From contig NMRA01000177.1 in assembly GCA_002633005.1 (NCBI GenBank), forward strand, positions 698,059 through 762,058: 64,000 nucleotides of DNA, given 5' to 3'. This document shows positions 9,377 to 52,383 of the stretch, one piece after another; the first letter of the stretch is position 1, and every line of letters begins with the position of its first letter. Under the pieces are notes generated by a model. It did not search any database. It was not told the origin of the DNA and was given only the letters and a program-made list of their open reading frames with translations. The position numbers and the translations under genes are program-made. Source of the stretch: Phoronis australis. Taxonomy: Eukaryota > Animalia > Phoronida.

Positions 9377-12300
9377 ATGTTTATTTGGGTAAGGTAAGAT
9401 ACTAGATTTCTTAGAATGTTTTGAATTTATTGTTACGCCGTTTTTGAAGAACATACTCTTCAGCATAATGCGTTAAAATTTCAAAGCTTGTAAACTGATA
9501 AATCGATATTGCTCTGTTGTTGTATTGACGCCTCTTTTAAGGAAAGTCTTTGTTGACCTTGTTAGTCGTACGTTTGATCGTCGCAACAAATCGCTTTCAA
9601 CTTTATTCAACTTTGGTTGAAATGAGAAGATAAAATACCAATGGAAGCTAACGTTTTTCATCTTAATGACAACGGTTAGAACTCATCGTCGCAGCCACGA
9701 CCTGTCGCACGACCATTGTTGTAGATCAATCCCAAGGCCCGCAACAGTGGTTGCAGTGGCGTTCGGGCCAAAACGTTAACAATACCCAAAGCAATAAGAT
9801 CTAAACTTATTAAGACAATTATAAAGATTTCCGATAATACCCTGACCAGACATTTCTACAGATTTTCAATGACCAAACATGGTCTTCTCCAAAGTAATGC
9901 GTTTTCTGGGAAAATGTTAAATTTACAACACACCAGAAAACGTCGTTATGTCCTGTGAACAAAATAGCCTATGTAGATTTTTCTTTTTTGCCAGAGGTGC
10001 CTTTGTTCAAGGGGCTGTAAGGGAAAAAGGTAATTATGTGACCACTGTTTCTTTGTAGATTTGTAGTGAGCAATACAAAATATGAAAATTTAAGAAACTA
10101 ACGATTAAAACGTCATTTTTTTGCATCATTCTCAAGCTTTTGGTTGTGTAAAGTTGAAAACAAAACGCTCACGAGACTCTCATGTGCCGTTTGCTCGATG
10201 TTTGCGACACGATAACAACTTCGCCGAAGGAATATTTGCCCGGAATTTTAGTTGACATGTAATGAAATATTAGAAACTAAAAATGAAGGGAAATCAATTC
10301 TTGTAATTTGGTGTGAACAGTACGCCACCTTGTGGAAGAACAGCTGACTGAAGAATTGCTGTACGTGAACTTGGAATCCTGCTTAATCTCAAGATTAAGC
10401 GGAAGTGAGTGTTGCGTGAACTTGGAATACGCGAGGCAACTTGACAAGTTCACTCAAATAATCACGTTCATGTTCATAAAAATTTTCACTGCACTAAATC
10501 AAGTTACATTTGAATAAAATAATGTCAATTTTAACCAACCTTTTCAACTACGGGCGATCAGTTTCACCAAACATTAATGGATTTAGCCGTTCACATATTC
10601 CTCCGGTTCAGTTACGGTAAAGGAGAAAATAGTTGACCGAAAGGCCAATAATTACAAACATTCTTTTCACCGAACAAAAATTTCCCCTTTTTACCTTAAA
10701 GGCGAAGGCAACCTTTTTCATGTCACTTTTAGAAAAAATAAGATTCGTTGATTATCCCAGACACATTTTTCACTTAATTACATCTTTTCGTAATTTGATT
10801 AATTGCTCGTCTTCTACTCCGGAAGTGACGTTTTGGGAGGCAAGAGTTTCGCGCCAATTTCTTTTCATTAAAGTCTGACCGTGAGAGCAGTCGAGTCAGT
10901 CATTGTTCTACCTCGTTTATGATAAGTTCGGTCGTCGTTTGCTTTTGTTTACAAGTCAGTCAACATACCACGCTGTTGCTACGTGCCGGGATGTACTCAT
11001 TATCGTCTCACACGCGCTTTGGGTACCTTGCGTCGCTTTCCGAAGGATGACACACGTACTTGGCTAGCTCGTTCATGTGAAGAACGCAGCGCTACCCGTC
11101 CACGCAACGTACAAAGCAATGGAGGGTTACCGAGTGTCTGGCAAGCATTTTCTGCCGTCAGATTATGACAGATATGTACGCTGAATTGATGAAAGTCCCT
11201 GCGAAACAACGCCTGAAGAAGGGTACCATACCGTCGCTGTTGATTCCCGGCAGTGCCCCATCGCCAACCCCGAGAAGTGCGTTTTTGAAGCGAGAAGCCT
11301 CGCGAGCTGTGGCCACTATATACAGTGACTGGAAGCACTTCATCTACTGTTACCCGTGTCTCCGAACGTACCCCATTGCGTGCAATTCCGGGAACTAGCA
11401 GTGATTCGCCCTGTGCTCATCTCTAGCCCAGAGCCTATAAGCAGCCCTGCAGCGATGTTGAGTAGTGGGAGTGAATACAGGCCCAGTTCGACACCCAGTG
11501 AAGAGGACAGTTCGTCATCCAATGAACAGATCGGTGAGCCTAAGTTTGACAAAATTATTGTGGACTTGTATTGGAGCTATTTGGAAGGTGCCAGGTGTGT
11601 GGTGCGGGAGTCACATGGCGGGATGTAAGCAGTTTGGGTGCTCAGATGACCCTTCAGTGGGAGTGTGTCGCGGGACACTCGGGCAAGAGAGACAGTTCTT
11701 CCTCTGTACGTGAGACGATAATGAGTACACCCCAGTACGCAACAACAGCGTGGCATGTTGACTGACTCGTAAGCAAAAGCAAACGACGATCGAACTTATC
11801 ACAACCGAGGTAGAACAATGACTGACTAGACTGCTCTCACAGTCAGACTATATGAAAAGAAATTGGCGCGAAATTCTTGCCTCCCAAAAGCTCACTTCTA
11901 GAGTAGACGACGACTAATTAATTAAATTACGAAAAGCAATAAATAAGTGAAAATATGTCTCGGATAATCAACTAACCTTATTTTTGCTAAAAATGACAAG
12001 AAAAAAGGTTGCCTTCGCCTTTAAAGAATATTCAATTCCTAGTTCACGCAACACTCACTTCCGCTTAATCTTGAGATTAAGCAGGATTCCAAGTTCAAGC
12101 ACAGCAGAATAACGCGAAAAAGAAACTGGCGAACAGGTGGCGCTTTATTTCATGGCGACGGAAGCAAATGCATGTTAGTATAAACAATTTAGCAACAGAA
12201 CAACGATATAACCGTAACTTTAGCATCCGTAACCTATTCGCTTTGCTTAAGAAAGATTGTAAATTTAATGACGTAATTGTTTTGATTCATCAGTTTTCTA

Positions 12301-13241
12301 TTTTCTGTTCTATGTCGTAGTTATGGAGATGGTTGGAGAACAATTGTCAATACCAACTGCAGGTCAGTTCATATCCTTTACTACTTGAAGAAACTACTGG
12401 AGATGAGTGGAGCGGTAGAGGTGGCGGAGAAGGAATTTGACTTCAAGGCGACATCTGAAGGCAGGTTTTATGAACTGGTTATCCAACTGCGTCACCCAGA
12501 ATCAACGGGCACCAGCATGTTTTAGCATGTCAAAATACACTCTTCCTTGGGTAAAGAAAATAGCTCACGTGGCTAAAACTATCGTTATTTCATTACTTTG
12601 CTGCTCAATTTGTGGAGCCCAAATTGTTCGAGACCCATGCAATGTAGCCGATTTCTCAATCAACTTCTCGTTCCAGCAGGTTGTGTACGGTTTAGCTTAC
12701 AACAAATTACCAGCAGCAGCGGCGGCGGCGGCAGCAGCAGCAACCGAGTCGAGTGAACATTAGACTAAACATGCATATGTTCCACATCAGGGGTTGAGGC
12801 AGGGAACCAGTCAGCTGCAATGGCAGCTACCTTCATGATGAACTTAGCCTCAGAACAATGATGTATCAGCACTTTGACAAGGCCTACCTAAGTGTCTAAA
12901 CCCAGCCCAAGTTGCTAGTGTATGAAAATTTGGTTGCCGTTTGGATTTTCTTCATGATTACATGCAACATACAATGTAAGTGGTAAACGCATTGCGAAAA
13001 GTCTAAGAATCATCACTGCCAGATCTTGAAAAAGGGAATATATTTTTCAGGCACCTTCGATCTGTCCGATTACAACGGCAACGTGGTGAATATGCCACTA
13101 CACCAGTGGGAGCTGATGTCGCCATACCTGAAACCACGTGAGGAATACGTCGTCGTCTATACCCACCCGGTCGATGGAACCATACCGGTCTACTCTAAGG
13201 AGCAGAGTATACAGCTGTTCCCGCACTTTTTCGGTGTGTGA
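9377..13241 (+). CDS. C22orf15/CXorf65-family (Pfam Il2rg-like) small protein, 3 exons, ~115 aa
   Basis: Exons 9377-9393, 12321-12460 and 13051-13241 join in phase (348 nt): MFIWVSYGDGWRTIVNTNCRSVHILYYLKKLLEMSG...TFDLSDYNGNVVNMP...YLKPREEYVVVY...FFGV*. This matches the family pattern MFIxVxxG...vNxxC...DLxDxxGxV...LxxRxxYvlV. Intron 2 requires a GC donor (AAG|GCAGGT). Confidence 0.75.
10357..12106. mobile_element. Non-autonomous TIR element with TG...CA ends and 4-bp TSD (Ginger-like), host of a nested Kolobok
   Basis: ~72-bp inverted repeats at 10357-10428 (tgctgtacgtgaacttggaatcctgcttaatctcaagattaagc...) and 12035-12106, with GAAT directly on both flanks. Related TIR fragments occur at ~25230-25313 and ~25555-25614. 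Confidence 0.6.
10700..12020 (+). mobile_element. Kolobok-like DNA transposon derivative with decayed THAP and transposase N-terminus; ~310-bp inverted ends
   Basis: TTAA|AGGCGAAGG...CCTTCGCCT|TTAA (TTAA TSD, AG termini). THAP remnants PRCCYVPGC...RFPKD...W...KHF...LKKGTIPSL, followed by ELFGRCQVCG...G...WECVAGH. Inverted repeats at 10700-11011 and 11710-12020. Confidence 0.8.
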
Positions 13242-14560: not shown

Positions 14561-15688
14561 GACCAAGTTAATTAATGAATGTTCATAAAACTCAGAAAAT
14601 AAGTTACTTTCACGTGGACAACAGAACCGATCCCGTTTCAAATGGATTTGACCTACGATGCGACCCAGTGGCCTTTCCTTTGTTTTGGTGTCCTTCGTCT
14701 TCTGCCTGCCTTATACTCCAAACTTGAAGAATCATGATGAAAGGTGGCAGGTGTGTTCCTATTGAGGAGAGCAGACTTGCTTTGCACTCCCCAGGGACTA
14801 TTAATTTATTAAGTTTACTAACGTTGTTCCGTTTCACGGGAATGTTTAAAATAATGACCACGTGTTTTATATGCGCTGCATATCAGCGCTCTGTGTTGCT
14901 CTTAACAAGTTTGAATTAAAAGTGGTTGCAATAAACCACTTGAAATTCTCTGACAGCTGTACAACCTTGGCGACTGCAACTAACCAGCCGTGACAAACAA
15001 CTCAATGGTCCAAAGAAATAATGACCTGATATTTCTTTTCAAGCTTGTCGTTTCTTATCTGAGTAAGAAAAACTAAACCGACTCATAACGGACTTAAGTC
15101 AAAAAGTTCTTTTTTGCCAGAAGGCGGCGCGGGTAATAGTAATAATTTATTCTGCTTGTTTAAAAAGCTTCCTCATACGGATTTTTGTTATAATTGCACT
15201 GTACTATCCAAATGGTCTCAGCGATAGTTTAGCAACACAAGAAAATGCGATTTAAATACTCAAATGCAGGCTCATCAACTGAATGATAAGTGCTTTTTGG
15301 CACCACCTTGCGTCACTGTGAGAACTTCAGAAACCGAAGCAGATGTTGTTCCTAGCTGTTTGACTAAAGTGAGGCTTCTCACGGCGATGTACACGAAAGT
15401 CTATCAATAAGTCTAACCGTTCATTAGTTTTGACAACTGAAGATCTCACTGGTCAGAATTACATACATCGCTGGACGGTTGTGCTGTTATAACATTTGCA
15501 GAGCATACGATAGTCAGCAATAGCGATTGACCTATTGCAAGCTCCGCCTCCTGGCGTTATGTCGACAAACAAACAATAAGTTTTACCCGGCAACGTGTTG
15601 TTTGTCGGGTAAAATGGCGGCTTGGAAACGGAAGTGTGTCAAGAATGCTGTGTTCTGATTGGTCAGTTGAGCCGTCACTCAAAATCCT

Positions 15689-15842
15689 GGCGCGCGTTCA
15701 GTAGACGCTAGGACCTACGCTAGGACCTAGCTAAAATCTAGTCAAAGTCACGTGTTCTTATTTAAAATACACGGCAATATCTCACGAAATCTCGCGAAGT
15801 CTTGCTTTTTAGCGAGGTCCTAGCGTTACTGAACGGGAGGCT
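15689..15842. mobile_element. ~150-bp MITE (copy 1 of 3)
   Basis: cgttcagtagacgctaggacct ... aggtcctagcgttactgaacg inverted ends; near-identical copies at 20634-20786 and 21192-21343. Confidence 0.8.
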
Positions 15843-16377
15843 GGCGATAGGTCGTAAGACAAGTTTTATGGCCAAAGTCGTCCGTCAAAATGTTTTTCGA
15901 AGTTTGTAGTCAATCAATTATTGAAAACCGACGTGTTGTCATTTTTGCGCATGATTCAATGCGTAGCTGTGCTCATCGTCATGTTTAGCTCGGCCGCACT
16001 TAAGACAAAAATCGAATTAAGGCGAAATGCACCATTAATAAAGCTCGATAGGTATGCAAATTTTATATGACCTTTTTCCAGAGAAACATGACTGTCTGGA
16101 TGCCAGGTCTCGTAGTAGACTGGACGTCCGCTTAACGCCGCCCCGCCGAAAGTCTCACACATCAGGTCGCAAAACGTCATCAAGTCCCAGCAACCGGCAT
16201 TTGCACAGTCGACATAAATCATCGAAGTCGCGAACGTGTATAGACTCGCACAAAAAACCCAAATCCAAGAGGCATTCGAGACTCCGTCCTGTGTAATTAC
16301 ATGAATTGCCTGGTTCTGGGAATGCACGCCCGCAAGCAGAAGGCAGTGACTGTCACTTTGGACGAAATGATACGACT

Positions 16378-17258
16378 NNNNNNNNNNNNNNNNNNNNNNN
16401 NNNNNNNNNNNNNNNNNNNNNNNNNNNNNNNNNNNNNNNNNNNNNNNNNNNNNNNNNNNNNNNNNNNNNNNNNNNNNNNNNNNNNNNNNNNNNNNNNNNN
16501 NNNNNNNNNNNNNNNNNNNNNNNNNNNNNNNNNNNNNNNNNNNNNNNNNNNNNNNNNNNNNNNNNNNNNNNNNNNNNNNNNNNNNNNNNNNNNNNNNNNN
16601 NNNNNNNNNNNNNNNNNNNNNNNNNNNNNNNNNNNNNNNNNNNNNNNNNNNNNNNNNNNNNNNNNNNNNNNNNNNNNNNNNNNNNNNNNNNNNNNNNNNN
16701 NNNNNNNNNNNNNNNNNNNNNNNNNNNNNNNNNNNNNNNNNNNNNNNNNNNNNNNNNNNNNNNNNNNNNNNNNNNNNNNNNNNNNNNNNNNNNNNNNNNN
16801 NNNNNNNNNNNNNNNNNNNNNNNNNNNNNNNNNNNNNNNNNNNNNNNNNNNNNNNNNNNNNNNNNNNNNNNNNNNNNNNNNNNNNNNNNNNNNNNNNNNN
16901 NNNNNNNNNNNNNNNNNNNNNNNNNNNNNNNNNNNNNNNNNNNNNNNNNNNNNNNNNNNNNNNNNNNNNNNNNNNNNNNNNNNNNNNNNNNNNNNNNNNN
17001 NNNNNNNNNNNNNNNNNNNNNNNNNNNNNNNNNNNNNNNNNNNNNNNNNNNNNNNNNNNNNNNNNNNNNNNNNNNNNNNNNNNNNNNNNNNNNNNNNNNN
17101 NNNNNNNNNNNNNNNNNNNNNNNNNNNNNNNNNNNNNNNNNNNNNNNNNNNNNNNNNNNNNNNNNNNNNNNNNNNNNNNNNNNNNNNNNNNNNNNNNNNN
17201 NNNNNNNNNNNNNNNNNNNNNNNNNNNNNNNNNNNNNNNNNNNNNNNNNNNNNNNNNN
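16378..17258. other. Assembly gap (881 N)
   Basis: Continuous run of N. Confidence 1.
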
Positions 17259-18534
17259 CATTTGCACCCCCCGAACTGCCAAATTGAATCTGGGAAAATT
17301 TTAGGGGGGCATGGCTCCCTTGGGCCCCCTCTAAATCCGCCACTGCTACAGTGAAGGCAGGTAGTGTGACCATGTGCTTGTAATAACTTACATGACGATA
17401 TCTCACGAATTAAAATCTTGCAATTTCTCCAGGCACTCACGTCCACAAACGCATGCCCACTTAGCCCAATTCTCTGTACCGCCCGGCTCCGTCAGTTCAG
17501 TAACCCTGTCACGGTGTCGTCCAGGACATACTTCTCGAGTTGAACGCCACTATACGTCCAGCCGGCGTCTTTTGCTTCTCAGTGTATTTTCAAAACAGTC
17601 AAAGCGTTCTTTCAACTGTGGAAACAAATCATCCCATCGTCACTTGTTGGAAATGACTCGTACAAAAAACTCAGTCTATCTTGTACCTGTGCCGCAACTA
17701 TGTTTTTGTAGCAGTTTTGAAAACAAATTCTTTCCTACTGCTGTTGTCAGTGTTGCAGACAGGCTTCGAGTGAAACTGCAAATGATTTAATTTTCCATGA
17801 CTTGCTACGCAGAGAATCAAAGAGACAAAATTCTTTTCGGCGACTGCAATTTGGTACAAAATAACACTCTTGATTGTATAGAATACAAGCATCAAAACAA
17901 TCCGAATGCGAGAAACCATTCTCACGTCACGATTAAGTTTGGTGGACGCGTGGTGTTTACATGTACGTAACCCTTGCAAGCAAACGCCTTGAGACTTTTC
18001 CTTGGTGTTCGATGACCTTCCGTCTTGGATGGGAAATGCCGAGATATCCCCAAGATACAAAAACAATCCCCGCTGTGGCATCACTACTAAGGCTCCTAAA
18101 TTTGTTTGAGGCAAAGATCTCTAGCAATTTAGTCAGTTTTTATGTGATCCAGAGTACAGCAATACGTAGAAGGGTACCAGTGAAACTGAGAAGCAATACT
18201 TGACTAACGACAATGTCTCCAACTTGCCAGTCACTCTGTCGACTCTACAGGATTCTCTTGTTTTTGAGAGGATTTTAGTAAAGATTATGCATTTTACTTT
18301 GGCAACTTATCCAGCATTCACGAAAAGATAGAGGAGCAATTGAACTTATGACTAATTGTGCTCCTGGACATTTACCCAGATTTGCAAAAAAAAGCAGGAG
18401 AACATAAACGAAACGATTGTTAGTTCGACTAAACTGACAAATTATGCTTGCTTTCTGTATACAAGAGCTACCTGGAGTGTTGAAACGAACCTACGACTGC
18501 AACGCAATTCCGTTAGCAATTTTAGTCATAAAAA

Positions 18535-18865
18535 CGGTCATTAGATGTCACATGTGCGCTACTGGACATGATTTTAATACGGACGATTTTACTATCTTAG
18601 ACTGTGAGGGAGACTGGTTCAAAAGGGGTGTAAAGGAAGTTCTCCATGAGCGCATTGAGAGTCCCTCTTTAAATAAAAGAGGCGGTTTACGATTCGATTT
18701 GTCACACGTATGGGATGGTGTACTGACGTCAATGCCGCGCCGTTTAGCCAAAACGCCACCAATTGGCCAGAATTACGATAACGTCACAAGCCAAGCTGAA
18801 GTCCGTGAGATGAGGACGCAACGTCGCTAATTTTTGTGAGTTTTTATTCCAGTATTAGACTCAAA
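18535..18865 (+). mobile_element. Penelope-like retroelement remnant (GIY-YIG C-terminus)
   Basis: HMCATGHDFNTDDFTILDCEGDWFKRGVKEVLHERIESPSLNKRGGLRFDLSHVWD has the typical GIY-YIG tail H..F....IL..E..W..R..KE...I....P.LN..G. It is paralogous to 3495-3950. Confidence 0.8.
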
Positions 18866-19703
18866 TTTGATCTATTGAAATAACATGCGCAAAAGGTATT
18901 GCGTTAAAGCAAATACAAAATACGACTATATTATAAACCTACTAGCAAAATCTGGGATATCATGAACAGGCAAGGATATACGTACTTTGCAGTATAGATC
19001 AATGACCCCATGACGCCCATACTACACTCATGATGACATTTCACCGTTCACCTACACAACACCATAATCCAATAATTTTCTACAATGGCCCCTGTTCACG
19101 TAAATGTGTAATAAAAAATCCAAGCTGGTCTATCGTAGTCGAGTAAACACCGGCTTTTCAAAATTCGTTCCTTATCAAACAAGCAAACAATACCAAAATC
19201 TGGTTCAGACACATGCTAATGTTAATTAAAAAAAAATGCAGGTCTTGGAAAATTATTTAAATGTGCACATGGTTCTGTTCAGCTCAGACACGGTTGCGGT
19301 GTCGAAAGTAAGGTAAGCGATTTCATCAACAGATCGATGTATGTCACAGATTATCTCCACATACGAATTATTCAGACTTTCCGATTTTTATATATTTTTC
19401 TTTTACAAGTGTCGACCAAAAGTGCGGAGGCTTGAATAGATAAATTTGGAACCCCATGAATACCAGATCTAAAGTGTTTCTTGAAATTATCGGCTTCGGC
19501 CTTATGTCGCTTCTGAGCTGCGACACCATCTTTTCATCAAGAACAGTAGGTGACTTCATCCGGGTTCTTTTTGGTTATATTTAAAAATTATTGCCTTGCA
19601 TGTGAGCGTTGAATCGACGAGAAGACGAGAAAATCCCACAAGCGGTCGGAGTGTTGACCGACGCCAATGTTATTTTCAAGTGTCCTTACCTTTTTTCAGA
19701 ATC

Positions 19704-22446
19704 ATGCTCAACATGAAAGTTGCCAGTTTAATCTTACTGTCAGCGTGCGCTGTCGTAAACGGATATCTCGGTTTGGATAGATTCGACGACAGCTTTATTA
19801 GAGGCATCAGCTCGATGTTCTATTATCGGGGACTACAGAATCACCAGTATGCCGTAGGCGTTTTAAACTCGGGAGGAGACTCTTCGAAAAACCCACTCCA
19901 TCCTTGCTACAGGGAATCGGGCAGCAAATACCTTGACAAGGCCAGGTGGTACACTATGGATGCCCCCGTTCGCTGGCAAAACTTCTGGGCGCGCGAACGC
20001 ATTAAGGGCGACGTGAACATCCATGCAGAGATTCAGGTTTTGGACGCCCTCCCTGGCGTAATGAGACAGTTTGGCGATACTGTGAAGTAAGTTGGGTATA
20101 ACTAAACTATGGGCAATTAGACCCTTCCTGCAACAAAGAACTAATTTTTAATTCAGCGTTCACATGCCGTCTTATCAGGTCGACTGATCTTCCACTTGTT
20201 CCAACAAAAAACAAATGCATTTCAATGATCGTCAGATCTCAGGGGCCCAATTCTCGAATTGTATACTGGCAAACGTTTGGGTCGAGTTTTTAACATCCAA
20301 ACGAGCAGGCTAGAGATTTGAAATTTGCCTTCAGGTTTTAGGCAGGTTTTCAGAATTCTTACCTAAGCCTAATTAAATGAAATCTGCGAGAAACAGCCGC
20401 CTACCATGACATCAATTGTTGCTATCGCCTCAGAGCGACTGATGATATCTATGGTGACAGTTTATGTCGTAAGAACCCCTGCTGATCTGTCATCCTATTG
20501 CCCAATCACATCGATCTTCTCCCTGTGATTTGTAGTTATGGGTCTCTTCATGTTCACGGTAATCGTTGTGATTGGCCAAAATATTAATTTCAAGTAAAGC
20601 CGGAAACTAAGTAAGACGACTTTGCAAACCCTGGCGTGCGTTCAGTAGACGCTAGGACCTACGCTAGGAGCTAGCTAAAAGCTAGTCAAAGTCACGTGTT
20701 CTCATTTAAAATGCACGGCATTATCTCACGTAATCTCGCGAAGTCTTGCCTTTTAGCGAAGTCCTAGCGTTACTGAACGGGAGGCTGATTTTAACGTTTG
20801 GTCTGCCACATTTTAGAGCAATACCACATCCCATCGTGATATCATTAACATTTGAATAGCCGTGCGCGTCTGTGTCCTGCCTTTCGCTATCCAGGTGCTT
20901 CACGAATCACCACTTTTATTGCATGCCCACGATAATCGCACGTGATTGACCAGAATATTGACTTCACAGAAAGGCGGTAACTAGGTAGGACGACATTGTA
21001 AACTTGGTTTTAACGTCTCTTATCTTTTTAATCGAAATGGAACTCGAAATTATAGTGCCGTTTACACCAAAAGTTGACAAAGAACTAGTTGTTTCAGTGT
21101 GAAAACGGCACTGACACGGAGCGAATTGACACCCCGGTGAAAACTTTTGCCACCCGTTTGTGAGGTGGAGCAATTTGCGCTACAACACCTTGCGTGCGTT
21201 CAGTAGACGCTAGGACCTACGGTAGGACCTAGCTAAAACCTGGTAAAAGTCACGTGTTCTCATTTAAAATGCACGGCAATATCTCACGTAATCTCGCGAA
21301 GTCTTGCTTTTTAGCGAGGTCCTAGCGTTACTGAACGGGAGGCTTGCTTCGTGTCAATTATGTGTCTAAACGCGAAACTGGGGCAAGGCGGAAAGGATCA
21401 TCTCTACTGCGCTTGTGTAATGACCTCAACATGGGTTCTTTGTCTCTTCAACTCCCGTGATTTCTAAACCTACGCATGTGTGATACACTCTCCAGCCTAC
21501 AATTTCCGTCTTGCCACAGTTAGTGAGTTTTGTGTGTGAACGGACGCTTGACACCGATCAATTTGCTCCGTGTCAGTTGCGCCGGGCCAAAAGTTGATGT
21601 CTAAAGGGGACTTATGTTTGGCATTTTCTACTCTAGGCCTACTTTTGTGCGAACTCAAGATAAGTGTCTATTATTCTATGCTCGATTACATAAGGAATTA
21701 CGTGGATAATTTATATTAGTCCTAGTTTGCAGTTGATAAACCCAACATTAATGCTAAAATCTCGAGTTTTCACTCTAGTTTGCAGCACGAATATAAAGGT
21801 CTTCAAGTGCAAACGTGGACTAGAAACTCATGTGCATAAACTATAATGTATTCGAGTACAGTCCGATAACCAGCTATCGTGAGTTCGCACAAAAGGAGCA
21901 GAGAAATTGCCAGAAATAATTTCGAGTTCATTTCAAGTACAAAGATTAGAGACGGGGCCCCCTGGCACTCTCTCGTTAGAACCTGGAAACATCTTTACAC
22001 ACCAGGGCTGAGTTGCATAAAGCTTCAAAAGATATCCGCTGGATAAGTTTGATTGTTGCATGACGTCATGTGCATTGTTCAACAATAACAACGTGTCGCG
22101 TGATAGTGCGACGTCATTGTTGCTATACGGCGTTTAACTTTTATGCAACTGGGCCCTGATATATTTCAGAGAAATCCACATGTACACACAACTGTCACCG
22201 TGCGAGCGATGTACCAATCGTATTGAACAATTTGCAAGGGAACACCCGACTGTGAATTTCTATATTGGTTACGACTACGTATTCACGCACGAGGAAGACC
22301 CAACCGGCCAAATAGCTTTGGACTACGCTAAAGCACGCTTTAGACCCTTGAAGAACCTGTGGTTTGATCAAGTTGCTGATCCTACTAAGGGACCAGGGAT
22401 GAGTTGCAGCTATGTAACAGGACGCAATGAAAACACCGTGTTCTAA
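19704..22446 (+). CDS. Secreted AID/APOBEC-like Zn-dependent deaminase (SNAD-like), 2 coding exons, ~219 aa
   Basis: Exon 19704-20086 (donor AA|GTAAGT) and exon 22170-22446 (acceptor TTTCAG|A) join in phase (660 nt). N-terminal signal-like MKVASLILLSACAVVNG; HAE at 20022-20030; EIHMYTQLSPCERC with SPCxxC at 22195-22212; no internal stops; AATAAA at 22466. Confidence 0.88.
20634..20786. mobile_element. ~150-bp MITE (copy 2), in deaminase intron
   Basis: Same sequence and inverted ends as 15689-15842. Confidence 0.8.
21192..21343. mobile_element. ~150-bp MITE (copy 3), in deaminase intron
   Basis: Same sequence and inverted ends as 15689-15842. Confidence 0.8.
21619..21912. mobile_element. 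Fold-back MITE-like element in deaminase intron
   Basis: cttttgtgcgaactcaagata (~21644) pairs with tatcgtgagttcgcacaaaag (~21875), and there are inner imperfect inverted segments. Confidence 0.55.
22003..22158. mobile_element. Harbinger-like MITE abutting the deaminase exon-2 acceptor
   Basis: cagggctgagttgcataaaag (22003) versus cttttatgcaactgggccctg (ends 22158) are inverted termini. Confidence 0.6.
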
Positions 22447-22465
22447 CGGAGTAAATTATTGAACT

Positions 22466-22471
22466 AATAAA
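22466..22471 (+). promoter_or_regulatory. Putative polyadenylation signal of the deaminase gene
   Basis: AATAAA 20 nt after the TAA stop at 22444-22446. Confidence 0.5.
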
Positions 22472-25400
22472 GTTGTTTGGGGTAAGGTAAATGTTCGTCA
22501 TCTTCACCACTATAAAACAAATCAAAATGTTATGAAAATACACTACTACGTATTCTTTACTGTCTCCTAGCTGTGTTTTTCTGTCATTCAAGTGGGGGAA
22601 TTTCAGCCGTACTTTTCGAAGGAAAAATGTTTTGTGTAGTCTTTTACTTTTACGTAGTTTTCGAAGGAAAATGTCTCCGTTTTGGCCTGGTAAAACAGGT
22701 TAATAACCATGATTCTTTTTGTGCGTCTGACATTTGTTTTTTTCACAACGTCATTCATTTAAATGCCTTAAAACAATGTAATAATAGCACGAATTTTACC
22801 TATTCCCATTTATGTCGCAATCTGCAAATGCTGTGTGTTAAAACTGTTCTTCACACTGTGCGCATACAGTTACTTACCAACTAAGTCACCCAATGTCTCA
22901 TTACATGATAGTGACATCCTAAACACAAAAAATATTTATTTACTGCTTGCCTAACATTTTACATCGAACCACTTATCTTGGAGTTAATTTTACTCCAGCC
23001 CATTATATTGATTTTATGCGCCCGCATTTTGGGTGCACACTTCGGTTGCATCTCATCAGATTTGTACCTCTGAAAGTGGGCGGTTGATTTTCAGTGTGTT
23101 TATACCCAATATAGTGTTACAACCAATATAACTAGGTGATTGAACTTATTTAGACTGAACCAAGTAACTCAAAATTTGGGACGTTCCTTTACCTTTTAAG
23201 GTCAAATGCCATTGAATGACTCGCTGTTTTTTGATCCATTATCCTTTTGGTACATTTGAGGGATTTGGAAGATACACGAGGATAATGAGTGATGGCAGAC
23301 ACGTGGGTCAAAAAGACTTAAATGGGTCAAAAGTACCATCATGGGCCAAAAGAACCGTATAATCGACAAACAAATGTTGTGTTCCCTTTGATTGTAAGCA
23401 ACGGTGTCTAGAGCACGTTCTAAAACGGATCGCTACTGAAGTTGCGGCAGCCGACACACGACCTGAGAGTTGTAATGAACTGTATTTATTAATGGAGGTA
23501 AATCCACTTGACAGCAATAGAAACTGTTATAGTGTACAGGGATGCTATGTATGAATGAACTGGCAGTAGTTTGCAGAGCTTATTTATTCGCAGATGTCCA
23601 ACATGGAACGATAAAAAATTTGAACAGAATATATAACGATTTGCAGCACCGGTTTTCAACCGATTACTTGACGGCAATGAACCATTTTATTAGCAAATCA
23701 TTTACTTTGCTAATCAATTTACACAATCTATGTAAGTACACCCGGCTAAACAACAAGATATAACAGTGCAAAGTAGTCTTCACAAGCAGAAATAATCAAA
23801 GGCACCTACTAACAAATAAGAATCAGGTTCTTTCCGGCTATCTCTAGATTAAAAAATCTTATTAGACTGGATTAAAAAATATGGCGCAATCATTACTAAA
23901 GCATAGACTGGGTCAATATAACAGTCATGAAGTAAACACCATACTAATCTAGGTTGAGTATTCTGTTATAGCAAACGGTGTCATACCCAAACGGAAACAA
24001 TCTGGCCGCCGTGCAACACAGGTGCGAAGGTCACCTGTAAGCAACTGCATGGTATGACAAGGTATGCAAAGTACAACAAACTGAGCCCACAATTCATATA
24101 GTATATGGACAGTTCCTCATACAAATACTAAATCAACTCAGAAGTAGACAAATTGCAAACCCCTCCTCAAATGACAACACACGTCCAGATCAGCAATGAC
24201 ACATCCTTTCCGAAGCGCAACAGAAATGATAATGCTGTCAAAAGCAGGTCGAGTTCAGTACCTCTCTTTGGCAAAATACAGAGCCGGTTCCAATCAGTGG
24301 CTTGCACATCTGCTATATTGTGAACATGAACTCACATAATAACATTCTAAAAGAAACAACACAGACCAGTGGCACACTCAAACACGACCCAAGAAAAACT
24401 ACGTGACAACCTGGTTCGACCGAGCCCCCCATTTGACGAAGTGGACAAAAAGGTCCGCCTCAAAGAAACAAAAAGTCCCAGAAAACGAGACAAAAGTCCA
24501 CTAAAAAGACGCAGACGCACGGTTCTGAAGGTGGCACCCCGTTTTTCGTTTTTTTTTTAATCATCCCGATGTTTTGTCAGCAAAAGGTCCACATCGACAG
24601 CAATTCGAGCCCCCCATTTTCAAGGCTGGGTGCGCGCATATACAGGAGGTCTATACGAAATCATAGAACTCTAAAAGCCAACTAAAGCCAACTCCCGCAC
24701 CTGACCTACACGCATCTCAGTGGCGGAATTAAGGGGGGAGGGGGGGGGGGGNCGTAAAGCGCTGCCATTTGAGAATTTGACTAGCCAATCAGAAACGCCG
24801 GTGTAAAAATTTTTCCTGGGGAAAATGAAGTGATACCTGCGTGCTGGCTACCACCTAGCGGCACGCAGGGAATCAGCGAGGGGTTTAACTCGAGTTTAAA
24901 AACAAATGAAAAAATGAAACAGTGACATATTGTCAGTTCAATGAGATGATTTCGTTGTGGAAAATGATTTTGTTTTCTACTTTTATAACCGATTTATGCG
25001 ATCGCCCATTTTAGGCCGATTTGGGGGTCTAAATTCACCCTCTTTCGGTGAAATCAAAACGAGACAACGCTAGAAAAAACGTCAGTGCCGAACATTGAAT
25101 GCATTACAGCGGAACAAAAATTGGTGTCATTTATTTCTCCGATTATGCTTCAAGTAAGATTTTAGGTAATGTCCGATATTTAGGGTCCGTCCGATAATTA
25201 GGTACACTATGTGTAGATGTCGCAAATGGTTGCTTAATCTCAAGATCACTTCCGTGAACTTGGAATAGAAATTTATTCCAACTTCACGCAAGATTCCAAG
25301 TTCACGCACGGCACTATTAGCCAATCCACGCTGTTAATCCAGCTCATTGTCTCAGGTTTCCAGTCACGTCAACTCTTCGCCCACCCACTCATCCCAGTGA

Positions 25401-26573: not shown

Positions 26574-29500
26574 ATGTCAGCGCCTGTGGTGAAATGGATT
26601 TGCCGACGTTTGACAAATTTATTGGGCTTTGAAGCTACTGAAGATGTTGCTAGGTGTGTGAATTAACGACGCGTAATTATACTCTCTGTACGATGCATAC
26701 TTTGATGATAGATTTAACCGGACACAATTGACTAAAGCACCTGAACTGTTTCACATCCGTGACTAACTTTTCAGTATTGCACAACATGGTGAAGACGAAG
26801 TGGAACTGAAAGATTTGGTAGCCTTAGTCTAGGAACCATATTGGTTCCTAGCCTTAGTTCAAAGCTGTGTATTGAATATAAAGCTTTGCGCAGATGTGGA
26901 TACTGTCATTACTGTAATTGAAAACTGCACTCTTCCTTGAGTAAACAAAATTATTTACTGGTGTTACAGAAAAATGACGTTCTATCGAATCTATCGTTAT
27001 TCGACTGCTTAAGTTGTCGAACAGAGATGGCTGTGTGGGGTTTTGGCGCCATGAAATATAGAGTCACCTATTGGTCACTTTTTTATCAATCCTTCTGTCA
27101 ACTGTTCTTCTTCCTCGAGGTTCCTAATGTGTCTCAACAAATTATCACAACTGGATTCTTTTCTTTGTATCTTTTGTATTTTAATAAGCAAACCGAACAG
27201 AGTTTGTTGCTCCGAAGGTGCCATCATCTCCCGAGAGATGTCGCTAAAAATTAGGAAATGGCACGTGCATGTGTTCTGAGTGTAGGCCTACTGTTTTCAA
27301 AACGACAATGGACTTTTCTTTGTTTCAAAAGGTGGAGAATTATGGAAGAAAATGATGTTTATTAGATTGTTTTTTCACTTAAATGGCTGCAACGGACAAG
27401 GTGAGTGTTGGTCCACTCTCAGATTTTGCGTGCACCCCCGCCGGTCGCTAGCTCTACATAAGTTTCACGATGAGGTGATGAGCATAACTATCCAGGCGGT
27501 GTGAAATTTCAAAGTCTATTGTCCAGCTTAACATAATGGTTATAGTAGCTGTATTTTGACAATATAGCCTTCATACAGTTAGCTAGCTGGCTAACCTAAC
27601 AGCTGCCGTATCTGGTTTTATTTTTGCCTGCATACTGTAGGTGAAAATCTGTTATTTTTAAAGGTATATTCTGGCCATAGAAGATAAACAGGACCTTGAA
27701 GACTACTTATTGGAGCTGCTTGATGGAGGAGTTCCTGAGAACAGAACTTTCGTCAACCAAGTGCTGGCAAAGTGGACCCCTCCACAGAGAGCTGTGGAAG
27801 TCCCACTTGAGGCTAAGGTACTCCCAACTAGTAATGTGATTGCCTATGCTTGGCATAATGCCAACTGGCCAAATGCGACCTGGCAAAATTCCCAGGTTGT
27901 CAAATGCGAAATGAGGTTTCTAAAACAACAACCCCTATGCTTAGCATATTGCCAACTGTCCTATGTTCCCGGGCAAAATTCTCTGGTTGTCAAATGCAAA
28001 ATGATTTCTCTGAAACAAGGACACCCCTTTGCGCGCTGAATCCTTGGTGGGATAGGGCCATGGTGAAAACTTGACGTTGCTATTAGCGTAGGTGAAGGGA
28101 AAATTTTTAAGTATTTTCATTGTTCATTGGCTCCTTTTTTCAATGCACAAACCTACTGTAATTGGCACAGGTTTCTGAAACAGTGATAGTTTTACAATTT
28201 TACGTCATGGTAAATGTACTGGAAAACAAATGCATAAAACATGGACCAAAAATGAGCTCTAATGTCCGTGATACAAATCAAAGCTCGGCACTAATGACTG
28301 TCTGACTGTCTTGGACAAGTAAACTTGTGATGCTGTTAATAAGTATTTACATACACGCGATGCTTAGTGAGAGGGAGAGAGACCAGAAATCAAAACAGTT
28401 GGAGCTCAAATGAACCATGCTGAGCGTTACCTCAATAGAAATATTGGTTCATTTGAGCTCCAACTGTTTTGATGTCTGGTCTCTCCCTTTCACTACCAGT
28501 ATATGCATTTTGACGTGTACCTGTACAGTCTCTTCTCTACCTGTGTCGCCTGTTTTGAGTCGGTGAACTGTTTCCTTGACAATGATTTAGAGTAATAAAC
28601 CGAAACGTTGGATAGATATATCGTTATTTACTTACACGCTAATTTTAAAGTTCGTGCTTCTGTTCTGGCCTAAATCAAATGCGAATCCTTGGAACAAAAA
28701 TTTGCCAGGTCTCCTTTCTCGAGTTGGTCACGCTACACAAGCATCCTTAATTTCTGATTGTCAACAGTACACTATATATAATTAGTATTGTATATAGTGA
28801 ATTGGCGACGATAGAAGCTAAGGACACTTGTGTCACATTAGAGAATAGACATTGAAAAATAAATAAGAATAGGTACCCCTAAACTGCTGAAAACGATTAA
28901 TGATTTAAAACTTTGTCAAGGTGAAATAGAGTTGTCAGGTAGTGACGCGATAATTAACTTTTGATGCCATGCTTGCAATAAGGGATAACCTGATAATCTG
29001 TTGCCATACCGACTACAGTTCTGTTGCCATACCGACTACAGTTCTGTTACCATACCGACTACAGTTCTGTTGCCATACCGACTACAGTTCTGTTGCCATA
29101 CCGACTACAGTTCTGTTGCCATACCGACTACAGTTCTGTTGCCATACCGACTATAGTTCTGTTGCCATACTGACTACAGTTCTGCTTTTTGGTCGAATAT
29201 GGTGTACTGTTTGTAGAACAATGAAAATAGACTTATTGTTGGAAGTTGTCGTCGAAGTTTACCAAACGTGAATCGTACTGATTGGTCAGTTGGCGAGGTG
29301 ACATTTGATGTTCAGATCAAAAGTGTAAATAATGGGAATGCTGACTTGAGTAACACTTCTATATGTTGGCAGCAAATGTTCTGTGCTGTTGAACAACACA
29401 CTGGAATCTGCCAATTCTAGTTTCTTCAGAGTCCGCTCATGCGTTCGGAATCACCCACTTGTATAGGCACACAAGAATGAAGAGAACATAAACACATCAA

Positions 29501-32500
29501 TACAAATACATCAAATACATTGATTTATTACTGGGTCTTCGATCAGACTCATCCATCATCGTCAAAGGAGAGAAATCACAAGCAACTGTCTCGAAAACAT
29601 AGACACGTGTGAAAAAACGCAAACACGTAGAGACACCTTCCGATGCTGCTGAGAGCAAACACAAGGGACTAAGCAGTCAATGTGAATATGCGGTCTTGCC
29701 TAATGTGTGTTCACGGTTTGTGCACCTTAAGCACTGATTTTTAAATTTGAGTGAACAACCAAGACAAGGGGAAAGGACAGGGTCTGGTCTTCCATTTTCA
29801 AAAACGGAGAAATCATATTGGTGATACATAATTCTGTTTTTTATCATTTTTCATTCAGTCATATTACTATTTCAAAGTGGTTAATGGCACAAGAGTAAGA
29901 CTCAAGGTTGAAATGCACCCACTACTGCACGGATAGTTCTTGGCATTATTAAAATGGCCGCTAGATAAGAATGCGTTGAACATGTATGAAAATGTGAAAG
30001 CATCGTTGTCTCCTTGATAGAAAAGTGTTTGCCACATTTCATAAAAATCTGTCAAGGAAATATAAAGATACACAGGCCAATTTTAAAAATGTAAAATGCC
30101 AATAGGAGGCACAACAGTAATCAGATCGCTCTACCTGTCGTCGAGTTCATAGGCATGCACTTGATCAAATTTCACAAAGAAGCCACGGGGTTTAGGAGAT
30201 ACAGCCACAGATGCGAAAATGCAACTAGGGGTCACCACCGTAGTCGCACTCTTCTGAAAATCACCACTCATGCTCTTGTCAGTAGGATCGCATTTACTTA
30301 TTTTCATAATGATCCTATGAGCTGTTGGGTGCATACAGAGTTGGGCAACAAAAACAGACTAATAGCGAAAGCAACGTAAAGTGTTGAAATGCATCCCTGA
30401 CTATACAGGAGTGTGTGTCATTCCAACTGATTACATAGAAGTCTTTGGCGAAGCTACAATCGGCAGAAGCCATTTTTTATGCGCCCACATATTTATATGT
30501 GGACGCATTATGCCGTCATCTCCGTCCGGGCGGCGTCCGCTGCTCTATCTCCAAAACCCTTTGACATACATTCATGAAATTTGGCACACATGTTCCATTC
30601 ATGAATGGGACGGCATGAGCGAACTTTCGGACGGATCCGAGTACCAGTGTGCCCCAGATTTTCATGAAATTTAATATGTAGGCACCTATTAGTGAGATGA
30701 CGCTATCCTCCCGTTTTCTGATGGATTTGACGTAATTTGCGCTACCTAGTGGCCATTTTTACTGTTTTTGAGTCTGTTTTTTTGTGTCCACCCCTCTATC
30801 AACCAAACTGCTCAAAGGATGATTGTGAAAATTGGCATGTATGTGCTTACTATAAAAAGGACGGTTGACGATGATTTTTCGACGATTTTGACTACTGTGG
30901 CACCTCCTAGTGGCAGTTTTGTTTTTGTTGCGTCTATGGCTGTATCTCCCAAAGCAATTTAGCAAGTGTATTTATATGATGTTGACTACAGATGACGACG
31001 ACTTTTGGACAGATCTGAATGCTGCTGTGCCCCCTAGTTGCAATTATAGTTTTTTTACGTTGAACTCAGTATCTTCAAAGGTCCTCAACAGATTTTCATA
31101 AAATTTTAAGTATAGGCATTTAATGGTGTGACGACAATTTCATTTTATTCTGTTTTCCTTTGTTTCTCTGAAGTTCCTTGACAGATTTTTATGAAATATG
31201 GGAAGTTCCTGTTTTTGGATGGATTTTATGTTTTTGCGCCATCTCGTAACCATTTTTATTATACAAATAAATAACCCTAAAAGCACACCATTTGCAATGC
31301 ATTCGTGGCTGCATTTCAACGCTCCGCGTTGCTCTTGTTTTCCAACAGGGCATGACCTGCGTAAATGTATAACAATTTCAAAACAAAAGTTTCACACTGA
31401 TTTTCAAAGATTTATCGTGTGGTTTTTTCTAGGTTTTCATCATGTTTTCAAAAAAAATGTAGAGTTTTTTCAAATGGATTGCAGCAATAACTGTGTACAT
31501 TTAATGTGCAGGTTTACAGAAAGAAGGAAGCTGAAGACTTCATACCTGCCGCTAAGGACAAGGTCAGCTCTGCTGGTGGTACTGCCAGACAAAAGGTATG
31601 GATGACAGAATAAATGTATGGATGGCAGTAGATATCAAACAACAGTGGGTGGCTGGATTTTGCTTATTTTTAGTGGAGCATTTGAAGGGATCAGACTGAT
31701 GCATTCTGTAGACACATGCTTAAACGTCCTTAAATTATGATTTGAGAAGTCAGAAAAATATGATGGACAAATCTCCCAGCCCTAATGTTGCAGACTACAA
31801 GCAATACATTCTATAAATAGACAGCTTAGTAGAGTCACGCCTGTTGACGAGGTGACAATTTTGATTAGTTGTTGTGAGATCCACATGGTTGCAGCAACAT
31901 TGCAACAGTTGGGGAAATAGAATCTTATGGTGATTTGTAATATTTTGCGACAGATGTTATGAGATTAAAAGGGCCAATGCGATATTCATTTTCTAACCAG
32001 CTAAACGTGGTGAAATGCATCTTTGATGAATATTCGTGTCGAAAGTCATTGAGTAAAGATTGATCAAGTTATGAATGATAACACTGGTTTTTCCGTGAAA
32101 ACTCTCAGGTCAAGTCGAGCCTTACCCAGGATGATGTACTGCCCTCTAGTGAGACTGGGGCAAGAAAAAAGAGCAAGTACGTTGCGCTCTACAGTCAAGA
32201 AGGAGTGGAGAAGACCACAGTGATGCTGAAAGGTCAGTCAGGGATGAGAAACCCAGAATTACAAATCGGGCTCAAAATGATTTACCTTTACCCATTCATT
32301 TTATCAGTTTGCAAACAGTTTCACCAACATCTAAGTCACATTTTCATTTGTTCATATTGTCAACTTTTATATCATGAATACACAATTTGAAAAAGTTCAG
32401 GTGAATGGTAGTTAAACTGTTAATTATTTCTTTTGGAAAATTTTGATTCTGAGAGGTCTAGTACACCAGGTTGGTACTCATACCTTGTAATAACATTACA

Positions 32501-35500
32501 TTGGCTGCTCAGCAAATTAAAAATGTCTGCCTTAGGTTTGCGTAAGACCTTATCGACAACTCTGTGTATGTTGCCAAGTATTAGCAAAACTATAGATTTT
32601 AACCCCGTAAAAATGCACATTTTCTGAAAGTAGAAAGCCTGTAAACATTATACCAATGTCCCACTGAGTGATGTGGCTTTGACTTTTTAGTAAAATTTAA
32701 GCAAAAGAGAAAGATACGTTCATAGCAAAACAACGGTAACAATGCAACAAAATTTCATTAGATATAAATTTTCAAGATGAAATCTCACAAATGGTGGTAC
32801 ATTTTTTACGTATTCTGTTTCTATTTTATGCAACTTTTGAGTTTTATCCAAACACTTTGGAGAACAATACACAAAGCATAATATCTGAAAGTTATCCAGT
32901 CAGCCCTTTCTGATGTATGATGTTCCAAAAATAGTCAAGTTTGGACATTTTCCTATGGTCCTACGTATCCTCCTTTAAACTTTCTCTGTTCATTGCAGGA
33001 CGGCATGTCTGCGAGTGCCAGTGCAGGAAACACAAGTTGATTAGCAACTGTCTGAAGTGTGGCCGTGTTGTCTGTGAACAGGAGGGCTCTGGACCCTGCT
33101 TGTTCTGTGGAACTTTAGTAAGGGATCATTGTTACCAATACAAACGTTTATAAAAAATAATTGCGTGCGGTCTGGCACACGTTGTACCAGACATGCACTA
33201 GCTGCTCAGGTGGGCTCATTGCACTGATCACCTGGATCCATTTTGATGCTTTATTTATATATGATTAAAACCAAGCTGAGGAGCTAGAGACATGACTCAA
33301 TGGTCTAGCAATGTGCTCCAGTGGAACTTGAACCTAAGATCTTGAGTAACGAAAGTGGATACTTATCCTGCTACGCTGCACTGCAGTTATCAAAATAAAC
33401 TAGACAACGTCAGTTTGATGTAGCCTTTACTTTTGCAGCTTAGCATCTACTTTGGTTTAGAATGAGACATTTAATTTCAGCTAAATGTTGTCGACACATC
33501 TTGTGTCAGGTTTTAATCTTTCAATTCGAAAATATTTTTGATATATTCCGTTCTTCTTTGGTACAAACTTAAAATACATATCTATTGTTCTGTGCCTGAG
33601 AATATTGTAGATTATGCAAATGAGTGCGTAGCTCAAATTTGGACTTAATGACCCCTAAACTCCAGCTGCAAACTCTTGTAAAAACCCCAAGTTTTGAGTA
33701 AAAAGATTAGATTCCGAGCACAGATATGTAAAATTTGTGCCTGTGTATCTAGTTATTTATTGTTGCATTTGGCATGTAAAGTGCATGTCTGTTGACTTCA
33801 GTTTTCAATATGAGCAGACTTGTTGCTCTTTCCAAGCCCGGGGGCCTTTTTCATGAAAGTGTTTTGAAACTAAAGTCAGAAGTTTGATCCCAGCACCCTC
33901 GATGACTCGATTTTGCAGCCGAATATTGACTCCTTTCCCGTATGAAATGTATTTAAAAGTCATGCGAAATTCCCCTCATGAGGCCCAAAAGTTTCCTTAC
34001 AGTGATAAAAAAGTTGAGTGGTAGAATTTGAAATTGGCTGCTTAAGGCATTGCTGACGAGGGGTAGTGATTGAGTGATGTAATTTGAAATTAGTGGTAAC
34101 TAAGAGGTATTTCTGCTCAAGAAAAGTTCCCCTCAGAAGGCACAGGCACCTTTCTCCTCAAGTGACTGGTTGTCAAGCTGTTGTCGACCTGCCGGACAAA
34201 TATTCGTGATGTGTGCTGTAAGTTCAGGGAATCGTAGCTGTTGTATGTTGCTCGTTTATAACCAAGACGGTGCATTTGTTGCAGTATGTGACATCAAACT
34301 GTTTCATCCCCGTTGTAAAACCAATGCCTTCACAACCNCCCAAGTTTTGAGTAAAAAGATTAGATTCCGAGCACAGATATGTAAAATTTGTGCCTGTGTA
34401 TCTAGTTATTTATTGTTACATTTGGCATGTAAAGTGCATGTCTGTTGACATCAGTTTTCAATATGAGCAGACTTGTCGCTCTTTCCAAGCCCGGGGGCCT
34501 TTTTCATGAAAAGTGTTTTGAAACTAGAGTCAGAAGTTTGATCCCAGCACCCTCGATGACTCGATTTTGCAGCCGAATATTGACTCCTTTCCCGTATGAA
34601 ATGTAATTAAAAGTCATGCAAAATTCCCCTCATGAGGCCCAAAAGTTTCCTTACAGTGATAAAAAAGTTGAGTGGTAGAATTTGAAATTGGCTGCTTAAG
34701 GCATTGCTGACGAGGGGTAGTGATTGAGTGATGTAATTTGAAATTAGTGGTAACTAAGAGGTATTTCTGCTCAAGAAAAGTTCCCCTCAGAAGGCACAGG
34801 CACCTTTCTCCTCAAGTGACTGGTTGTCAAGCTGTTGTCGACCTGCCGGACAAATATTCGTGATGTGTGCTGTAAGTTCAGGGAATCGTAGCTGTTGTAT
34901 GTTGCTCGTTTATAACCAAGACGGTGCATTTGTTGCAGTATGTGACATCAAACTGTTTCATCCCCGTTGTAAAACCAATGCCTTCACAACCACCCACTCT
35001 GCTCATCTATAGGTATGTACCAGGGAAGAGCGCGAGGTTTTATCACGTGGCTCTAAGAAGAGCGAGAAACTATATCAGCTTCTTACCAACAGCAAGCCTG
35101 AACTTGACACAGCGGTAAATCGCAAGAACAGATTGTTGGAGTATGACAGAACCTCGTAAGTGATCATGGGTTAAAAGTTGTCAGTGACATTGCATCTAGT
35201 ACATGTATTCTCAAGTCAACTAGTTACATTGAATTACAATTGTGAACAGACATCAGTGGTCAGTCGCGGACTATCATTCTGTGCCACAAGTTTAATTTTC
35301 ATAAGGATGCATCTTTCATAGCAGTTGAGAGCCCATGTTTACTCGATTACAAAATTTCCGATGAGCATCATGATGGGGTCACATGAAACTCTTCAAATGC
35401 CTAGTTTTTCTGTACATGGCATAAGCAGATTGACTACTATATCAGAGACCATGGCCAATACTATGATCGGCTAACAATGATCAATAATTAAGAAACTGTC

Positions 35501-51249: not shown

Positions 51250-51795
51250 TCAGAATCCTCCTGGTATGTAATTATTGTCGCCACGTTGCCCACGCGCTGC
51301 ACGCCTCTGCCGAATAACGTCATTACGTCCAGCAATGTAGGCATTGTCAAGGCGGATACGGTCAATGTTTGCAAGCCCACTGAGAGTCCAGTAGCCAGGT
51401 ATCAGGCCCAATGTTTCAAAAACATTCACTCTGCCTAATTCACCTTCATTATACACAATCGCTGCATCAAATACAGCCAGTTCAAGGCGCTTTCTACCAA
51501 CGAAGGTAGTTTTGGGGCAACGCTCCCAAACCAGATTGTGGAAGCTTTCGTTGGCGTTCTGTGTGCCACCGTGAGCGCACTTGTGAAGTAACTCCATGTC
51601 AGACAAAGATACAAACACTGGCCTAATTGCTTCACAGACATAATGTGGTAAGGCATTAGCATTGGGATCACCGCGTCCAGATTTTGATGGGCACCAGTCA
51701 CCACAGGCTTGATGATCACGATTGCGATGTCTAAATATTGCCCAGATGGCATTGTACATTGCCTGTACATTTCCAGCATTTTCGCGTATGGCAGC
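51250..51795 (-). pseudogene. Duplicate 3' part of the DDE transposase (probably an alternate haplotype across a single-N join)
   Basis: ORF 51250..51759 is near-identical to the C-terminus of 52384..53070 (CGDWC..KCAHGGTQNANESFHNLVWERCPK); it stops at the N at 51796. Confidence 0.7.
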
Positions 51796-52383
51796 NAGGT
51801 AGGTTCATTTTAGCATAATAAATTGCTTTCAAGTGTTTTGACAACTTAATTTGCATATCATTAGCAATTCAAAATGGCCGCCGCATGACCCAGAGTGAAA
51901 AACATAGCACACTTTGAAACACTGTGGACTAAAAAGTATTTATCCAATCAATTTGAAACTTAGCAAAATGATTTATACCAATGAGCTGCATGTTATGAAC
52001 TAGAGACATTCCATTGGGTGTCTTTGCTCCGGATTTACACACGATATTTGATATTTCTGCTAAAAATATCATTCAACCCTCATTTAAACATAGCTAAAAT
52101 GAAATTGGGTTGGACTTCACTTTCAAACTTAGTTCGTAACATGTAGAATAGTACTGTGAATCTACCCTGAGAATTTCAAGCAGTTATCTTTAATACTTAT
52201 TGAGATATGACGTTTCAAGTCTGCTTTGGTAGGCGAAAAATACAGTATGGCCAAAAATCGCTGTTAAAGTAAGAAAACGACAAACATGCGTATAAAAATG
52301 AACACAACAGCTTGTAACCAAAGAAAGACCAAAGATTATGAGCAGCATTTGACAGTTAATAATAAAATGTCACAATCTATGTG

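Follow-up and report, generated by a model that had tools for sequence, protein, structure and literature searches.

A likely secreted AID/APOBEC-like deaminase of a new variant type as a candidate C-to-U immune effector

Do the two open reading frames at positions 19704-22446 (+) of the 64-kb stretch of DNA analysed here (the window) belong to a single gene for a secreted AID/APOBEC-like deaminase (AAD), as a first-pass annotation had claimed, and if so, where does the protein belong among the known clades and on what does it act? In animals, descriptions of secreted AADs (SNADs, novel AID/APOBEC-like deaminases that are secreted) are confined to jawed vertebrates and sponges in the available text of PMC5889660, to which PMC9207270 adds a shark. 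In the literature searched, where subscription journals are thinly covered, there is no report of a SNAD outside these groups or of an activity of any SNAD. An expressed member from another invertebrate lineage would close this gap and put the origin of the SNAD1-type architecture at a far earlier date. We regard the gene as real with hardly any reservation, and judging from its sequence the product is likely a secreted AAD of a new variant type that acts as a C-to-U immune effector.

Gene structure and transcripts

The coding exons at 19704-20086 and 22170-22446 (+) splice in frame into 660 nt that encode 219 amino acids and one terminal stop. The intron between them (20087-22169; 2083 nt, GT-AG, with many small inverted-repeat elements) starts at the donor AA/GTAAGT at 20087, ends with the acceptor TTTCAG/A at 22169, and falls between H107-A-E109 (20022-20030) in the first and P138-C139-x-x-C142 (22198-22212) in the second exon. 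The first exon (amino acids 1-128) would comprise the signal peptide, helix 1, strand 1, an insert, strand 2, and HxE, and the second (amino acids 128-219 and the stop codon) strand 3, PCxxC, helix 3, strand 4, loop 7, and the C-terminal part.

RNA evidence was collected over 18500-23000 from a contig set (X1), which is RNA by our guess and shares 6% of the window's words, and from three raw RNA-seq runs of one study (X2-X4), selected by species label, of which 18-19% of the reads were used. The exact joint 20086 to 22170 is present in 18 reads of X2, 15 of X3, and none of X4, and the same joint together with one silent change at 20084 in 118, 96, and 219 reads, respectively. The intron is skipped in all three raw-read runs, and the RNA reads thus confirm the junction, mostly in the form with the silent change; the coordinates, motifs, splice sites, and stop-free frame of about 219 residues are in the sequence as had been stated. 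An alternative joint at 20074 is seen in 12 reads of X4 and in one X1 contig; this contig carries 12 letters in place of 12 at the joint, and the frame is therefore kept. First mates map almost only to the minus strand in the exons, and the RNA should therefore come from the plus strand, as holds for most stranded libraries; the unique intron bins at 20161-20613 have a depth of 0. Read depth in the exons is about 60-280, the upper values of which include a flanking repeat.

The ends of the gene differ slightly from the earlier description. The 219 residues are counted from the ATG at 19704 (MLN-MKV), and the start that had been quoted (MKV) is the second in-frame ATG at 19713. A pyrimidine-rich splice acceptor at 19690-19699 (+) lies shortly upstream of the start codon, and because its last two bases (19698-19699) end 4 nt before the first ATG, an upstream 5' non-coding exon is likely. 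The "two-exon gene" thus has two coding exons and probably a third, non-coding one. A candidate donor for the latter is GTAAGC at 19314; read depth at 19104-19405 is about 1 (X2/X3) compared to about 100 in the exon. At the other end, AATAAA is present at 22466-22471 (+) as had been noted, and its role as poly(A) signal stays that of a candidate; over the bin 22426-22576, which contains it, read depth declines to about 6-10, having been about 60-80 before.

Most reads are only 90-95% identical to the window, so that the runs may stem from a related population or species, or the reads from paralogues. At least three sequence types are found among the reads, and these are paralogues, pooled alleles, or both, as would be expected for a polymorphic or multi-copy defence gene. 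Eight of ten coding variants are synonymous (nine variants from 40 of the 453 variant rows and the change at the junction), where 21% would be expected (P = 1e-4), or 33% if only transitions are considered (P = 3e-3). The reading frame is under purifying selection.

There is no second copy of the deaminase within the window, in whose six frames the triplet HAE occurs four times and the strand-3/SPCxxC pattern once. HAE at 28416, 39318, and 39883 and SPCxxC at 29772 have no partner context and were discarded. Several repeats were observed in and around the intron. An inverted-repeat element with 26-nt arms (22003-22158) ends 11 nt before the coding-exon acceptor and leaves a very short pyrimidine tract, and reads with the exact joint are present despite it. 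Another element of 162 nt with internal inverted repeats is found in three copies that are 93-94% alike (20625-20786, 21183-21344, and 15682-15845), and the two copies within the intron have accumulated reads of either strand.

Deaminase class, predicted export, and ancestry

The signature of the zinc-dependent deaminases is complete in the spliced protein, with H107/E109 and C139/C142 at catalytic spacing. All 11 Pfam families that match exon 2 are deaminases. SNAD4 (31.9 bits), NAD1 (28.6), and APOBEC1 (27.1) score above their cut-off of 27 bits and APOBEC_N (25.1) above its cut-off of 25, and the APOBEC-type models reach 19-33 bits compared to 14.8-15.4 bits for dCMP_cyt_deam_1. The statement that neither reading frame alone looks like an enzyme was therefore too strong, because exon 2 passes four Pfam APOBEC-family cut-offs by itself. 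The expected match to Pfam SNAD, NAD, and APOBEC models holds for these four families, but SNAD1-3 match neither half of the protein at E<=10 in scans of each exon and of four sub-stretches.

A phmmer search with exon 2 in 1.84 billion representatives gave three hits, of which P0002 is the only true match: a partial two-domain AAD of the cockroach Diploptera punctata (KAJ9578442.1) with about 27% identity. The spliced protein aligns to the two domains with scores of 107 and 97 and without any gap over 74 and 70 residues, across the exon junction. Neither score was attained by any of 500 shuffles for each domain, exon 2 by itself gives 81 and 79, and the spacing from HxE to PC is 31 in the spliced protein and in both cockroach domains. 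Each of the tandem cockroach domains is followed by a hydrophobic stretch, a possible membrane anchor, and the protein may be a fused gene model. The two other hits, P0001 and P0003, were rejected because they consist of tandem repeats and lack the motifs.

Other searches were less productive. In the PDB, the top 12 rows are all APOBEC3 chains, all weak (E 0.02-0.1), and two weak chitinase rows obtained with exon 1 were rejected. A word-indexed protein search gave no match at E<=1e-3 for exon 2 (28 candidates, lengths 161-2000) or exon 1 (6 candidates, lengths 69-223). Contig scans with exon 2 found six loci in 210 metagenome stretches, one in nine viral stretches, and none in 195 stretches of prokaryote genomes; L001 and L007, the two that were examined, proved to be short, fortuitous hits that lack PCxxC and were discarded, and L002-L006 cover the 27 residues that L001 also matches. 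The best ESM Atlas scores (0.78 and 0.76) are leads only, NCBIfam and Rfam gave no families, and one weak PADLOC match was rejected. None of the matches of the protein searches with either exon is a SNAD protein. AlphaFold2, run on each half alone and without alignments, gave confidence scores (pLDDT) of 31.6 and 38.4 and was uninformative. The RNA reads, Pfam, and the gapless alignment across the junction support the HxE and PCxxC active site and the AAD class that had been proposed, and judged from its sequence the protein almost certainly has the deaminase fold. F166 (22282-22284) sits on the loop-7 Tyr of the cockroach protein in the gapless alignment, which is the position of APOBEC3A Y130. 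Krishnan et al. (available text of PMC5889660) state that the loop-7 aromatic leaves room in the pocket for no more than a pyrimidine. The deaminase is thus predicted, with reasonable confidence, to be specific for cytosine.

The protein is very probably exported. The signal peptide claimed earlier stands as a prediction, its only basis being hydropathy and the (-3,-1) rule: Lys is followed by a hydrophobic core that exceeds every other segment of the protein in hydropathy (2.62 for the best 11 residues), the starts of the eight top windows all fall within amino acids 2-10, and a (-3,-1) site follows G20. The predicted peptide covers amino acids 1-20 (19704-19763), with cleavage after VNG. The spliced protein contains neither a KDEL-like end nor a second hydrophobic segment. 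Two Cys are present outside the zinc site, Cys68 (19905-19907) in the loop after strand 1 and Cys207 (22405-22407) in the C-terminal segment, which are candidate disulfide partners, and Cys15 sits within the signal.

Compared by eye with the available alignment in PMC5889660, the front half of the protein resembles vertebrate SNAD1. Both have a signal peptide, a short first helix, the strand-1 pattern G-x(1-2)-N-x-QY[AS], a Cys in the loop after it (C68), an insert before strand 2, strand 2 NFWAR in the place of N[IV]xAAR, then HAE, and YTxxSPC in strand 3; an aromatic loop 7, a length of 220-250 residues, and two to three exons are common features as well. QYAV (amino acids 48-51, 19845-19856) would form strand 1, and about 40 residues separate it from NFWAR at 93. 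All ten places at which QYAV was found in the available part of that paper's supplement, in which the SNAD2-4 and dictyosteliid alignments are not complete, are vertebrate SNAD1 rows (block after Fig. S14), and column breaks can hide others. By composition, QYAV at the strand-1 position has a chance of about 6e-4 over 60 sites, for a motif that was picked after it had been seen. SNAD1 differs in having Cx3C instead of Cx2C, a Cys at the start of strand 3 that is absent here, and a C--CxxC--C tail, common to SNAD2, in place of the one Cys (207) after the active site; its hosts are vertebrates, and the Pfam SNAD1 model has no match here. The protein may, at somewhat less than even odds, be the first secreted deaminase of the SNAD1 lineage outside vertebrates and sponges, and the founding member of a fifth SNAD clade intermediate between the SNAD4 of sponges and the SNAD1-3 of vertebrates.

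Alternatively, it could be a classical cytosolic-type AAD that gained its signal peptide independently, the likeness to SNAD1 being convergent or accidental; its ancestry would then differ, whereas its mechanism might not. The back half fits this explanation well, because it shares with the arthropod classical AADs (P0002) a gapless catalytic core of 70-74 residues, the spacing of 31, and Cx2C, and helix 3 is short; P0002 differs in having two domains, and its clade is not described as secreted. The missing matches to the SNAD1-3 models and the missing SNAD1 cysteine signature fit as well. However, QYAV, the G-x-x-N-x before it, the following Cys, the long insert, and the NxxAR-like strand 2 appear in the order of SNAD1. 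In addition, the WP before strand 1 and the NYS before CxnC that mark the classical clade of lophotrochozoans, echinoderms, and cnidarians are both missing here. We judge a classical origin to be somewhat unlikely.

Proposed function and the surrounding sequence

On balance we lean towards an expressed, spliced, zinc-dependent AAD that is exported and serves innate immunity as a C-to-U mutator of viral or microbial single-stranded nucleic acid. On entry into the endoplasmic reticulum (ER), a signal peptide of 17-20 residues would be cleaved to leave a mature domain of 23 kDa, in which H107, C139, and C142 would hold the zinc ion, E109 would be the catalytic residue, Cys68 and Cys207 may form a disulfide, and F166 would close a pyrimidine-sized pocket. 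Cytosine in the single-stranded nucleic acid of invaders would then likely be converted to uracil. Fish SNAD1 and the AID-like proteins of invertebrates suggest, as analogues, that this might happen in the secretory pathway, in vesicles, in body fluids, or once infected or foreign cells have taken the protein up. In fish, SNAD1 has been found in the blood as well as in seminal plasma and shows a response to infection (available text of PMC11004436), and some AID-like proteins of sea urchin and brachiopod deaminate C in E. coli assays (available text of PMC5956068). For the "toxin-like" effector that had been suggested as well, nothing was found apart from the fact that these enzymes in general descend from bacterial toxins.

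Several points weigh against the immune mutator. At E<=10, Pfam has no family for exon 1, and neither half matches SNAD1-3. The protein, contig, and structure searches found no close homologue, and there is therefore no conservation profile. A Tyr replaces the basic residue that ends strand 4 (APOBEC3A R128), and the mature domain is neutral (23 K+R, 24 D+E) with no sign of a strong nucleic-acid-binding surface. The variants examined are mostly synonymous and give no sign of the positive selection of an arms race, and no immune gene was recognised among the neighbours in the window (103 stretches scanned). According to PMC11004436, no activity, substrate, or role has been established for SNADs, and activity, secretion, and induction are putative here.

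The neutral charge, the absent R128 equivalent, and the mostly silent variation leave room for the main functional alternative, a secreted deaminase of free cytidine, deoxycytidine, or nucleotides that would serve extracellular salvage, digestion, or nucleoside signalling instead of mutating. Nucleosides are more readily available than naked single-stranded DNA in extracellular fluids. However, the sequence context is that of the polynucleotide AAD class, as seen from the higher scores of the APOBEC-type models than of dCMP_cyt_deam_1, and we regard a free-nucleoside enzyme as unlikely.

A catalytically silent nucleic-acid-binding protein, or one retained in the ER or a membrane, has precedents. 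APOBEC2 and APOBEC4 have no clear activity despite their kept motifs (available text of PMC5956068), and the N-termini of some SNAD1 are predicted as anchors (available text of PMC11004436). Here, none of the four catalytic residues has been lost, the hydrophobic core ends in front of a (-3,-1) cleavage site, and retention signals of the KDEL type or further hydrophobic segments are missing, which makes this explanation quite improbable.

It is equally improbable that the host is a sponge and the gene a divergent SNAD4. SNAD4 is the top Pfam family for exon 2, above the cut-off, but it also ranks first for the non-secreted cockroach protein, and the rank is therefore not diagnostic. With the SNAD4 of sponges (PF18750) the protein shares the signal peptide, the Cx2C motif, and a run of acidic residues after loop 7 (HEED, 168-171), which fit Table S1 of PMC5889660. 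It differs in having F166 where SNAD4 has the loop-7 W, Ser (QLS-PC) where SNAD4 has a charged K/D/E before PC, and a long insert that separates strand 1 from strand 2; two published SNAD4 alignment rows contain neither the QYAV strand nor the insert. W192 in LWFDQ may be compared to the W at the end of strand 5 of SNAD4, with a strand register that is not fixed. The neighbouring TRIP4 gene also speaks against a sponge: its long introns stretch it over 15.7 kb, its identity to 21 comparison proteins, no sponge among them, is 51-67%, and we judge such a TRIP4 to be less sponge-like. A bacterial contaminant was rejected because of the spliceosomal intron and the animal neighbour genes.

This TRIP4/ASC-1 gene looks intact and has at least ten exons at 26574-42318 (+), as located by tblastn and Pfam. 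Its first exon, at 26574, lies 4.1 kb downstream, and nesting of the deaminase within it was rejected for this reason. An unrooted tree of 22 sequences sets the TRIP4 of the window apart from the vertebrates (support 0.999), which puts the host outside this group, and leaves it outside the mollusc group, whose own support is 0.688. The 21 other sequences were picked from 120 of 206 hits, and there is no cnidarian, echinoderm, amphioxus, or sponge among the named matches listed.

A Mutator-like transposase is present in pieces, with its 3' part duplicated, at 51250-53672 (-). Frames at 53937-55307 (-), which have no Pfam match, resemble Crypton-like elements, and a fragment at 18438-18830 (+), also without Pfam match, resembles the end of a Penelope-type retroelement endonuclease; it is covered by reads from both strands. 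Thrombospondin type 1 repeats are found at 61530-62997 (-), where three of them share an open frame and a fourth lies upstream. A weak Pfam match to Il2rg at 12286-12522 (+; 22.4 bits, cut-off 27) is possibly an exon of a small conserved gene, and a weak THAP domain match at 59461-59814 (-) is below the cut-off. Local duplications of several hundred bases with near-identical translations were seen at 43495-44709 (+) and at 39318/39883 (-), and an assembly gap of 881 bases (16378-17258) lies 2.4 kb upstream of the deaminase gene.

Comparison with known deaminases

If the protein represents a fifth clade, invertebrate immunity would include exported mutators as an old branch with multiple gene copies that has escaped annotation, and the protein would offer a compact two-cysteine model for finding the substrate of SNADs. 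Being small and poor in cysteines, it is a practical choice for assaying a SNAD for the first time; how useful it would be for base editing is a matter of speculation.

Among the other groups, SNAD3 has a similar strand 3 with an aromatic residue and T before CxnC (YTQLSPC), but has lost the signal and carries a large alpha+beta insert after strand 5, where only 53 residues follow loop 7 here. The APOBEC4/Cnidaria-algae clade has a second zinc site (loop-1 Cys/His, NC motif), whereas only two spare Cys in the mature protein and no NC motif are found here. The AID-like proteins of sea urchin and brachiopod (Liu et al. 2018, PMC5956068), with which the protein was compared by description only, are likewise invertebrate and AID/APOBEC-like, but neither "secret" nor "signal peptide" occurs in the main text of that paper. 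The secreted AADs of dictyosteliids, as described in the available literature, also combine a signal peptide with the AAD domain and have an insert near strand 1, but differ in a four-Cys C-terminal domain and a loop-7 W. With its predicted signal peptide and AAD domain the protein thus fits SNAD as a description, which is the part of the earlier assignment that stands, yet it lacks defining features of each clade in Table S1 of PMC5889660 and, as these are defined, is a member of none of SNAD1-4. It seems to combine a front half that resembles SNAD1 with a back half of the classical type with Cx2C.

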